UHGV virus genome: UHGV-0106067
Length of the DNA: 62,562 nt
DNA from: a virus
Strand: one strand, 5' to 3'
Positions 28,940 through 37,291 of the stretch are shown in pieces. The notes beneath the pieces are model-generated. The model was not told the DNA's origin and searched no databases. It saw only the letters and a list, made by a program, of their open reading frames with translations. The position numbers were made by a program, and so were the translations under genes. Within the stretch, counting starts at the first letter, position 1. Each line of letters opens with the position of its first letter.

Positions 28940-31900
28940 TTACTCCACTCCCACTTTTTTGTTGTACTCGCGGTTAAACCGATCCACGGCAATTTTCATA
29001 TCCCGCTCAACCGATTTCACCATCGCCGACTGTTGCGCCAGACTGAGAGTACTGTCGGCGTAAATGGCATCACGCTGTTTACGCAAATCCTTCAGTCTCT
29101 TCCGGGTATCCTGCATAAGCCCGTTCATCAACAATTTTCCGTTGTTCTCGTCAATGAACGCCGTTCTTTCTGCACCGGTCAGACTCTTCAGCTCTGCGTG
29201 ATACTGCGCAACCTCTGTCATCCGGTCGTACATCTTCTGCTGGTCTGCATACGGCATCACCTCACCCGAAATTTTCCCCAGGAAGGGCACCTGCTGCTCC
29301 GGTATATCAATACCGTTCAGCGATTTCACCGCCGCATCTGTGGTTTTGGAAATGAAGCGCCCTGTCCCTCCGGAGATATAGTCAATCCAGAATTTCAGCG
29401 ATTCCGGTGTGATATCCACCGCGCCGGGACGATACTGGCTGCCACCTGAGAACGCATTCAGCCAGGATGCAAACGCCTTGTACGCCTCAGGCGTTGAACG
29501 TCTGCCCAGCTGGCTGTCCGGTTTCGGTGTGCCAAATGGCATGTTCTCCTGGTAAATCTGCGCCCCCATGAAGTTTTCATTCATGGCAAGGTTCGCAAAC
29601 GGACGCAGAATGGTCGGCGCTGCATTTTTCAGCAATGCCCCGGACAGTGTTTCCGACGTTTCACTGCCCACAGGACTGAATGCCCCCAGGATACCACCGA
29701 CAACATTACCGGCAGCACGTGAAGCAGTCAGGTCGCCCGCTGCCACACCTTCAGCAGTATGCCCGAGCAGGAAGAAAACGTTGTACCCGTAAGGCAGAGG
29801 AATACTCCAGTACTCTCCGGCCTTGCCCCCGAACACCGATTTCATAATGACGAGGTTACGCTCTTTCACATGAGACGGCACCTTGTCATACCAGTTAACC
29901 CCGTCATCATCCTCCCCCGCAACACTGCGGTTAAGCGAGCCAAGCAGATAACCCGCTCCCACAGCTGCAAGCGCGATTTTCTGCGGTACATTGAGATTCT
30001 TCCAGCGAAGGCGCTCCGGTAACGGCCCGTCGCCATTAAGATGTCCGAGCGTTCTCACCAGGTTTGCGGTCCCCTGAATGCTGGCGTTGGCAAACATATA
30101 CAGCGAGTTCATCAGCGCTCCCTGCTCACCACGACGGTTAAAGTTCACCGTCATGTTTTTGGCAAGAGATGCCGCCTGCTGGCGTGACAAACCGGCATCA
30201 CGGGCGTGTTTATAGGCAGAAAGACGCAGAGCGTTTTCAACCGCGCCGTTGGCATCCTCGACCAGGTTCAGGAACGAATGCCATGCACCGATACTCTGGC
30301 CTTTCCATCCTCCCTTCGCCAGCGATACAAGGCGATCCATTTCCTTCTGCTGGCCTTCAAGGTCACCCATGTTAAACCAGCCGGTTTTACCTCCATCCTC
30401 AACAAACTCTTTCCACACCTTCTGCCACTGCGCACCGTTGCCCGTGAGGGTTTTACCACGCAGACTGGCGTATACGGCAGACATGGCAGACCGGCTGTCT
30501 TTCACCACAGCCAGGGCGGATAAGTTATCCAGCCCTTTCAGTTTACCGTCGCTCCTTCCCTGCTCAGCCTTCAGGTTCATCACCGCCGTCTGCACGTCAC
30601 GGATGAAGTTACTGACCAGAAATTCCGGGTTATACGACGTGTTCACCGTTGCCAGGAAACGGTTAACTTTCCCCAGCGTACGGATTACGGCGTTACTGGT
30701 TTCCGGCCCCATGTTCTTCATCGCACGCATCAGGCGCGGGTCATGGAGTTTGATGTAGTAAGTTTTGCCGTCCTTTTTGGTGGTGAAGTAGCGATCCGCC
30801 ATCATTGCCATAGGCACCGGACGTTCAACAACTTCGCGACGGGTTTCGCCGGTTTCCGGATCAACACGCTCTGCAATCGCCCGCATGGTGTCCGGTTTGT
30901 CATCAGTGAATACCTGCCAGTAATCCTTATCGGGATTATCCTGCACCAGTTTCAGGAAGGCGTTACCCACTTCGTTTTTGCGATTGCGGATCAGCGATTC
31001 GCTCAAATCCTGTATCGCCTGAGTGGAAGGAGACTGTGCGCGGGATGCACGCCCCATGGCCTGCCTGCTTTCACGTCCGCCGATGGTGAAGCCCTTACCT
31101 GCACGGGGCAGTGACACCACACCGTCAACATCCTGACCTTTCAGGGGAACGTAGTAACGGTAGGCGTTCTGCCAGGCATCCACCACACCGCTCTCTTCCA
31201 GTCCGGCCTCACGGATAAGCTCACGGCGACGGGCCAGCATATCGTCAACAATCCCTGCCAGACGGTCATACTGTGCCTGTTTGCCACTGTTACGCACACG
31301 CTGCATGATTTCCGCCGCTTCCGCGTTGGTCATCCCCGAACCGCCGTCCGGCATTTTCGGGTTGATTTTCGCGATATGCGCGTTACGTTCCGGCGCGTGA
31401 CGGGCGTAGAGGTACTCATCCAGATCGGCCTGCGCAATTTTGTAGTCCGCCAGTAATTTAGCCAGTGGCTGAACGTAGCGCTCCTTCATCACGTTCAGGT
31501 CGTTTTCCGCCTTCCCGTGGAAGAGTTCTTCAGCCATATAGGCGTTATTGCTGTCATCTATTTTTCCGCCAGTTTTACGGATATTCTCCTGCACCGCCTT
31601 CAGCACCTGGAATTTATCCTGCATCTGGCGAACAAAACGGGATGCAATTGTCTCTTCCGGTGTCAGACTGCTGGTACGGGAGTAATACGGCCCCTTGCGA
31701 ATATCTTCAGGATAGAGTATTTTATCTACAGAGCCGCGATAAGAATGTTCCCCTTTGGGCAATTGAAGCCCTCTGTGCAGAAGGTTATCGCGGCTTAATT
31801 TTTTCTTCCGGTAAAGCGTTAATCCGGCTTTATCCAGACTATTTGCCTTATTCATTCCTCCTTCCGTACCGTAAACCGAAGCTACCTTGTTGATTTCCAG

Positions 31901-37291: not shown

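Follow-up and report, generated by a model that had tools for sequence, protein, structure and literature searches.

UHGV virus genome UHGV-0106067, analysed here over its whole stretch of 62,562 nucleotides (the window), devotes 8352 of its 62562 bases (13.35%) to one giant gene. A six-frame scan shows a single open reading frame (ORF) on the minus strand at 28940..37291, with an ATG start and 2783 amino acids (aa) plus a stop codon, and the gene matches PHROG 616 (phrog_616) from end to end. The original prediction, made from the letters alone, had described an 8.35-kb single gene of 2783 aa making up 13% of the genome and lying at the virion operon's distal end; coordinates, length and position all hold. 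The gene is an allele of a catalogued gene and its product a known kind of protein, a giant polyvalent virion protein, so neither is new.

Megablast returned 186 phage records carrying the giant gene at full length with 90-99% nucleotide identity, all of them short-tailed Shiga toxin (Stx)-converting or related phages of Escherichia and Shigella. Orthologues include ST933Wp72 of 933W (NP_049532), gp35 of Stx2-86 (YP_794082) and gp47 of phi24B, and RefSeq labels those of Stx2-86 and 933W (Traversvirus, Sepvirinae) 'LPD5 domain-containing protein'. In 933W and Stx2-86 the gene is the last of the late operon, directly before the integrase/attachment end. The order is the same in the window, where the giant is the final late-strand gene preceding the integrase at 27429-28673. 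The window is a stx-negative 933W/phi24B-type podophage. It shares with the phi24B, 933W and Stx2-86 orthologues the same gene in the same last-late position with both metalloprotease-like motifs identical, and differs from the Stx-phage orthologues in that its allele has ~95% nucleotide identity to the best database matches, carries a minority cassette and comes without stx. The gene is made up as follows.

28940..37291, minus strand: whole gene for the giant polyvalent virion protein (ORF scan; full-length phrog_616 match)
35900..36916, minus strand: conserved N-terminal domain (aa ~126-464), no Pfam family, 38-homologue profile
36020..36070, minus strand: glycine zipper GAALGAAMGAPFGAVAG (aa 408-424), a perfect GxxxGxxxGxxxGxxxG
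34604..35899, minus strand: low-complexity linker (aa ~465-896), rich in E, P, Q, A, R and D
33725..34603, minus strand: 'pre' domain and LPD5 (aa ~897-1189), a dimorphic cassette among Stx phages
33002..33724, minus strand: zincin domain 1 (aa ~1190-1430), including Pfam 'LPD1' (aa 1350-1429)
33461..33475, minus strand: HExxH motif 1 (H1273 E1274 W F H1277), ALAHEWFHSLD, conserved
33200..33202, minus strand: Glu1364, candidate third zinc ligand of zincin 1, within 'LPD1'
32222..32944, minus strand: zincin domain 2 (aa 1450-1690), HExxxH clade, no Pfam family
32657..32674, minus strand: motif 2 (H1540 E1541 I I H1544 H1545), an HExxxH family motif
32504..32506, minus strand: Glu1596, candidate third ligand of zincin 2, conserved
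31694..32191, minus strand: segment between zincin 2 and the C-terminal module
28955..31675, minus strand: conserved C-terminal module (aa ~1873-2779), including LPD38
29921..29989, minus strand: conserved hydrophobic helix VPQKIALAAVGAGYLLGSLNRSV (aa 2435-2457), the only one in the C-terminal module

Domain architecture of the giant protein

Four Pfam families are matched at scores 2-6 times above the Pfam gathering scores: LPD5 at aa 1046-1189 (E 2e-43, 149 bits), LPD1 at aa 1350-1429 (E 7e-23, 81 bits), MuF_C at aa 1739-1831 (E 1e-16, 61 bits) and LPD38 at aa 2466-2671 (29279-29896; E 3e-48, 165 bits). All four were defined on polyvalent proteins, and LPD38 is confined to phage-type proteins (Iyer et al. 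2017, PMC5512222). The modules run in the order N-terminal domain, linker, 'pre'-LPD5, zincin 1, zincin 2, PBECR/MuF-C and C-terminal module with LPD38, so that at least seven modules, several of them unrelated domains, are joined in one phage polypeptide of 2783 aa. Assignment to the polyvalent class, which had been proposed from the letters, is thereby upheld, and every feature of the class that could be tested is present: size and domains, signature domains, and virion linkage with packaging. The likeness to the polyvalent proteins of Iyer 2017 extends to the giant multi-domain chain, the location in a virion gene block, the LPD5, LPD1, LPD38 and MuF-C domains, and more than one zincin-like metallopeptidase (MPTase), including the HEXXXH type. 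Nothing categorical sets the window protein apart from them; in this case 'LPD1' seems to form a zincin's C-terminal lobe and not a domain of its own, and zincin 2 has no Pfam model.

A regular-expression scan of the giant finds exactly two HExxH motifs, against an expectation of 0.039 from its own composition (39 His, 197 Glu). They are precisely the two predicted, ALAHEWFHSLD at 33461-33475 (aa 1273) and LRHEIIHHAMEH at 32660-32674 (aa 1540). Around the first, a search with aa 1185-1450 returned 371 proteins; H1273, E1274, W1275 and H1277 are conserved in 114/114 aligned homologues and D1280 in 112/114. E1364, the invariant E325 of the zincin 1 alignment, is conserved in 104/104. The region models as a zincin of gluzincin fold (predicted structure), with HExxH on one helix (H232-249) and Glu1364 on the next conserved helix (H323-341), and a Glu on the next helix is the third ligand in the MPTases of polyvalent proteins (Iyer 2017, PMC5512222). 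The NCBIfam model CLCA_X spans aa 1171-1426 as one unit, at 152 bits, below its cut-off of 260. Because of this span and the conservation of the first HExxH and E1364, HExxH-1 and 'LPD1' are likely to be one gluzincin domain, in which E1364 would be the third ligand.

The unit of LPD5, HExxH and LPD1, to which CLCA_X is related, is also widespread as free-standing proteins of ~330-340 aa in metagenomic contigs, which are full of small unknown ORFs and whose context is uninformative. The 'pre' domain is found together with LPD5 and zincin 1. LPD5 was also considered as a DNA-binding domain, but its match to Arm-DNA-bind_4 (24.7 bits against a cut-off of 22.3) covers only 24 residues and is a lead only.

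Motif 2 belongs to a different clade. An exhaustive HMMER search with aa 1450-1690 gave 388 representative clusters, mostly of proteins of 1,500-6,000 aa. H1540 is found in 157/162 aligned homologues, E1541 in 161/162 and H1545 in 141/162; H1544, the second His of an HExxH reading, is not a conserved position. As ungapped strings, HExxxH occurs in 157/162 and strict HExxH in 8/162, all close relatives. The original prediction required HExxH to be conserved among homologues. This is so for motif 1 and, in the form HExxxH, for motif 2; the canonical HExxH is not the family motif of domain 2. HEXXXH in place of HEXXH has been described for one clade of polyvalent MPTases (Iyer 2017, PMC5512222). 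Downstream, E1596 is conserved in 163/163 and E1603 in 147/163 aligned homologues, and the domain models as a minimal zincin with the downstream Glu (predicted structure). An hhalign comparison of zincin 2 with zincin 1 aligns the strand and the HE helix at a probability of 3%, and paralogy is not demonstrable. In their models the zincins resemble the protein-targeting endopeptidases MtfA, anthrax lethal factor, PPEP and SprT/Wss1. They differ from the lethal factor, MtfA and Pro-Pro endopeptidase gluzincins in having 12-14% identity, with no detectable sequence-level relationship, and in a long insertion of 87 residues between HExxH and the Glu helix.

MuF_C models as an RNase fold of the RelE/colicin-D-like kind, not as a peptidase (predicted structure), so that the family profile match and the BECR fold coincide; its conserved polar residues are K1734, H1741, D1757, H1790, N1801, S1805 and Y1807. 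MuF-C has been defined as a PBECR domain (Iyer 2017, PMC5512222), whereas a preprint on phi24B names it 'a metallopeptidase' and proposes that it digests peptidoglycan (bioRxiv 10.64898/2026.04.10.717836). Because of the domain, conservation and fold evidence, the metallopeptidase label would belong to the two unannotated zincins and not to MuF-C. The PBECR domain is held in common with the MuF head proteins (SPP1 gp7 / Mu gp30). Membership of that family was rejected: no N-terminal Phage_Mu_F match was found, and the PBECR domain is internal and not C-terminal.

Outside the enzyme-like domains, the N-terminal domain contains a perfect glycine-zipper run, and 90% or more of 38 homologous N-terminal domains retain its G412, G416 and G420; Vibrio D75 has an equivalent run at aa 373 and GP4 one at aa 396. 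Pfam Gly-zipper matches are weak and below threshold (E 0.02-0.05). The linker that follows has no domain family match and is conserved in close relatives only. A hydropathy scan of the giant shows only three modest peaks. The helix at aa 2435-2457 has a Kyte-Doolittle value of 1.2 (family-mean hydropathy 1.2-1.3), and it and the Gly zipper are the only conserved hydrophobic elements of the end modules. An N-terminal Gly zipper and long Ala/Gln/Glu/Pro-rich linkers had both been claimed and are both present; of the several C-terminal hydrophobic helices also claimed, one is conserved and none is of transmembrane grade.

Constant ends and a variable middle

Comparison with other giant phage proteins shows that the two ends recur while the middle changes. 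Among 150 representative giants, chosen through their match to zincin 2, the N-terminal domain, taken for this mapping as aa ~100-430, lies near the N-terminus in 40, and the C-terminal ~900 aa recur in 22-30, with differing middles. The N-terminal profile (38 homologues) matches the window at E 1e-101, Vibrio D75 at 7e-109 and BcepIL02 at 5e-33, and C-terminal profiles match the extreme C-terminus of each giant at E 1e-144 to 0. Both end modules keep their ends in distant podophage giants. A tblastn search of phage genomes with the C-terminal 915 aa gave 337 records, in which the identity of the C-terminal module falls as listed.

Stx-type phages (186 records): 95-99%
~60-kb Vibrio phages: 42%
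Bacillus phage Dartukuta: 32%
Burkholderia BcepIL02 / DC1: 27%
Ralstonia GP4: 26%

In 5/5 lineages examined an HExxH or HExxxH stands 130-200 aa ahead of the C-terminal module. Independent support for this adjacency comes from the four giants selected by tblastn (D75, GP4, BcepIL02 and Dartukuta), the window being the fifth lineage.

GP4: pre-module HExxH/HExxxH at aa 2170
BcepIL02: pre-module HExxH/HExxxH at aa 3618
D75: pre-module HExxH/HExxxH at aa 2028
Dartukuta: pre-module HExxH/HExxxH at aa 2797
Window: pre-module HExxxH at aa 1540, with MuF_C inserted between motif and module

The gene order is shared as well: a virion protein of ~420-530 aa, the giant and the end of the late module follow one another in GP4, Vibrio D75 and BcepIL02. 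JC1 gp69, BcepIL02 gp70 and the GP4 'DarB-like' giant resemble the window protein in their homologous ~900-aa LPD38 module, their position and their association with virions, and the capsid, portal and tail of Bcep22-like phages and GP4 are related to those of phi24B (bioRxiv 10.64898/2026.04.10.717836). The C-terminal module is only 26-27% identical between the window and the GP4/Bcep22-like giants, and the cargo differs: an SLT lytic transglycosylase, methyltransferase, helicase and LPD3 in the latter, and LPD5, two zincins and PBECR in the window.

A second level of variation is found within the 186 Stx-type phages. The zincins (at least 90% identical) and the C-terminal module are uniform across them, whereas the 'pre'-LPD5 part (aa 880-1190, 33722-34654) is at least 95% identical to that of the window in 29 records and 60-80% identical in 157. 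The window thus carries the minority allele (29/186 records), common to Stx2-86. Two forms of this part within an otherwise conserved gene suggest diversifying pressure of the kind left by an arms race.

The giant of Dartukuta, a phage of a Gram-positive host, is annotated 'putative methyltransferase' and has four HExxH motifs and the same C-terminal module; its zincin 1 orthologue reads GSLAHEWWHALDNYF (E 2e-92). With zincin 1 and the C-terminal module both in this phage, the scaffold crosses the Gram divide, which fits oddly with a role specific to the outer membrane or periplasm.

Packaging in virions and the proposed role

Packaging has been demonstrated by published mass spectrometry for orthologues and relatives of the window protein. 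The phi24B orthologue gp47 (annotated at 2811 aa) is abundant in virions purified on caesium chloride, with 10,962 spectra, second to the major capsid protein and most numerous in the uppermost gel slices; neither the ordered density in cryo-electron microscopy (cryo-EM) nor negative-stain images show it, and the authors, who discuss it as a large polyvalent protein, propose encapsidation and a function in ejection (bioRxiv 10.64898/2026.04.10.717836). Its tryptic peptides HEIIHHAMEHVVTPAEYQTIIK and GNGPGALAHEWFHSLDNYFGR, listed in the phi24B supplement in aggregate and not per gel slice, span both motifs and are identical to the window sequence. Presence in virions, the check that had been suggested for this gene, is therefore answered positively through gp47. 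Naive normalisation of the batch spectra to portal, nozzle, fibre or capsid gives ~20-35 copies of gp47 per virion, an order-of-magnitude figure only. Among more distant relatives, the Bcep22-type giant JC1 gp69 is virion-associated by mass spectrometry (PMC9144972), and PTXU04_00025, the LPD38-bearing giant of coliphage PTXU04, was critical for infection in a CRISPRi-ART screen (bioRxiv 10.1101/2023.09.18.558157). The lysogen-expression paper of Riley 2012 has nothing specific on the giant gene.

We consider it probable (about 0.6) that the giant is a head-packaged, co-ejected scaffold with swappable enzymes, belonging to the 933W/phi24B/GP4/Bcep22 podophage lineage. Multiple copies, possibly tens, would be stored inside the roomy T=9 head and would exit by way of the tail, before the DNA or together with it, at needle release. 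The end modules, with the Gly zipper and the hydrophobic helix, may serve packaging and envelope crossing, membrane insertion or channel formation. The zincins may cleave the polyprotein at its linkers, host proteins, or both; the zincin-like MPTase is the commonest hub domain of polyvalent proteins and has been proposed to process them (Iyer 2017, PMC5512222). The released LPD5-zincin unit and the RNase domain would then work, in the early phase of infection, against targets in the host or its defences. Delivery into the recipient cell we infer from the missing ordered density and the internal location.

There are parallels in other short-tailed phages. N4 gp50, T7 gp14/15/16 and P22 gp7/20/16 are likewise packaged in the head and exit through the short tail, and the N4 virion RNA polymerase also has a zincin in its encapsidation region (Iyer 2017, PMC5512222). 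The giant differs from the T7 and P22 ejection proteins in having no detected homology to them and in being one chain instead of several proteins. An N4-like virion RNA polymerase was rejected, as no polymerase family was detected in Pfam and NCBIfam scans of the giant.

A bolder version, which we hold as a speculative possibility, joins the Gly-zipper domain, the pre-module zincin and the ~900-aa module into one self-processing delivery machine that would replace the multi-protein ejectosome of T7 and P22 and accept interchangeable, spliced-in cargo cassettes. It would apply to the ~60-kb podophages of the 933W/GP4/Bcep22 lineage that infect Escherichia, Vibrio, Ralstonia, Burkholderia and Bacillus, T=9 heads being reported for phi24B. 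The cargo of Stx phages would be the RNase and the dimorphic LPD5-zincin unit, which may be a protease guided by DNA in the manner of ArdC or SprT, and the adjacent zincin would act as release protease.

Several points weigh against the co-ejected scaffold. Cell injection and anti-defence activity are extrapolated, the zinc-ligand, protease and RNase roles are predictions, and those given to the end modules are suggested by position and conservation. No segment reaches classical transmembrane hydropathy in a scan of the whole giant. Zincin 2 spaces its histidines unusually, at i/i+5, and may therefore be non-catalytic. Searches of PDB gave nothing meaningful with the whole giant against PDB sequences or with profiles of both zincin alignments, and nothing significant when model 1 was compared by Foldseek. 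The zincin-2 adjacency of the 150 representative giants is biased by the way they were chosen. The phi24B sample whose gel signal trailed below full length had been in storage for six months, and the trailing may reflect degradation and not processing (bioRxiv 10.64898/2026.04.10.717836).

The proposal made for gp47 in the phi24B preprint, an ejection-conduit protein that forms a trans-periplasmic tube and opens peptidoglycan with its metallopeptidase, accounts for an abundant, virion-internal protein outside the ordered density and for the conservation of the glycine-zipper and hydrophobic segments. Moreover, the Stx version is without the N-terminal SLT of the GP4/Bcep22-like homologues, so another wall-breaching agent would be needed. 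We nevertheless regard this explanation as rather unlikely. The peptidase on which it depends is MuF-C, which models as a RelE/colicin-D-like RNase fold and is PBECR according to Iyer 2017, and the actual zincins resemble endopeptidases that target proteins. The cell-wall peptidases that are known fall mostly in the LAS/M23/M15 or NlpC/P60 classes, which also counts against a peptidoglycan target. The end modules could act as a conduit under the co-ejected scaffold as well; only the peptidoglycan target is disputed.

Still less probable is a purely internal function, as a scaffold or as a core that organises DNA in the T=9 head, with enzyme-like domains that have decayed and perform no catalysis after entry. 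Such a core would suit the high apparent copy number (~20-35 per virion, in order of magnitude), the essential LPD38-bearing relative in PTXU04 and a C-terminal module 95-99% identical across 186 phages. The best-conserved positions, however, are residues of catalytic type (HE..H with E1364, HE...H with E1596, and the polar set of MuF_C), kept over hundreds of distant homologues, and the LPD5-zincin-1 unit also exists free-standing in proteins of ~330 aa. This conservation and these free-standing units argue for retained enzymatic function.

Antirestriction of the P1 DarB type, in which a packaged methyltransferase-helicase shields incoming DNA from type I restriction, was considered since PHROG 10089 ('DarB-like antirestriction') matches aa 2344-2671 and a homologous C-terminal module occurs in the GP4 and BcepIL02 proteins annotated 'DarB-like'. 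The match is confined to the common C-terminal LPD38 region, no methyltransferase or helicase Pfam domain was found at E up to 5 in ten overlapping segments, and the label derives from cargo domains that are missing in the window protein. With neither methyltransferase nor helicase, DarB membership was rejected, and this explanation is effectively excluded. The same verdict falls, even more firmly, on the HExxH motifs as chance strings, for which the 2783-aa length and the 8/162 strict HExxH at motif 2 could be cited, against the 0.039 motifs expected, a first motif invariant in 114/114, HExxxH with an invariant downstream Glu in 157/162, and zincin folds modelled for both regions.

In the phages that spread Shiga toxin, 13% of the genome belongs to the giant gene, which is conserved in every sequenced member. 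A packaged protein with two protease-like domains and one RNase-like domain is a testable candidate for crossing the envelope and disarming new hosts, which bears on the emergence of new pathogenic E. coli. What is added here is at the level of annotation: the placing of 'LPD1' in a zincin, a second zincin of HExxxH type, an RNase fold for MuF-C, the map of constant ends and swappable cargo, the dimorphic 'pre'-LPD5 and a probably over-long annotated start in relatives. These additions leave the category unchanged, a known kind of protein encoded by a known gene.

Flanking elements and neighbouring genes

Two elements lie immediately upstream of the giant.

37304..37331, minus strand: intrinsic terminator hairpin GCCCGAC-CATCGC-GTCGGGC + T8, ~20 nucleotides upstream of the giant ATG
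37377..38639, minus strand: upstream neighbour of 420 aa, phrog_601, a likely co-packaged internal protein

The terminator hairpin is followed by a GGAG ribosome-binding site ahead of the giant ATG, and it is kept in 933W and Stx2-86 with a compensatory A:T to G:C change in the stem. With this hairpin upstream of the ATG, expression of the giant presumably needs Q-mediated read-through. In 933W and phi24B the annotation makes the protein longer (2806 and 2811 aa respectively) by placing its start inside the hairpin, and the hairpin region of the window has no ATG for a longer start. The start at MAYS... is therefore probably the true one, and those annotated in 933W and phi24B are probably too far upstream. 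On the other side of the gene, a 9-bp GC-rich hairpin (CATGCCCCG...CGGGGCATG) without a T run lies at 28908-28935 (minus strand), 5 nucleotides past the giant stop; it could represent a variant terminator, serve to stabilise the RNA or belong to the attachment region.

The small genes at 37377-40013 (minus strand) encode the 420-aa phrog_601 protein and proteins of 83, 150 and 217 aa; the 83-aa protein (38650-38901, minus strand) has a Gly zipper and bears the RefSeq label 'bacteriocin'. A homologue of the 420-aa neighbour lies upstream of the giant in Vibrio D75 (E 1e-14). Its phi24B counterpart, gp48 (421 aa), gave 1634 spectra with a maximum at its own gel slice, and gp48, gp50 and gp51, which correspond approximately to window 37377-40013, were detected in virions without a place in the cryo-EM model (bioRxiv 10.64898/2026.04.10.717836). 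The products of these genes are candidate co-packaged internal proteins, and the 'ejection-type proteins' postulated upstream of the giant agree with the detection of gp48, gp50 and gp51 in virions with no assigned density.

Elsewhere in the window there are no stx genes and no tRNA genes. The site downstream of antiterminator Q (6991-7521, minus strand), where Stx phages carry tRNA and stxAB, is occupied by an N6 DNA methylase (4366-6327, 653 aa, minus strand) and a type I HsdS-like specificity protein (3212-4306, 364 aa, minus strand), after which comes a NanS-p-type esterase (628-2601). The replication module at 8626-11107 (minus strand) consists of an SF2 helicase (506 aa) and a zinc-ribbon/Toprim primase (323 aa), in place of which Stx2-86 has a lambda-type O/P replication pair.

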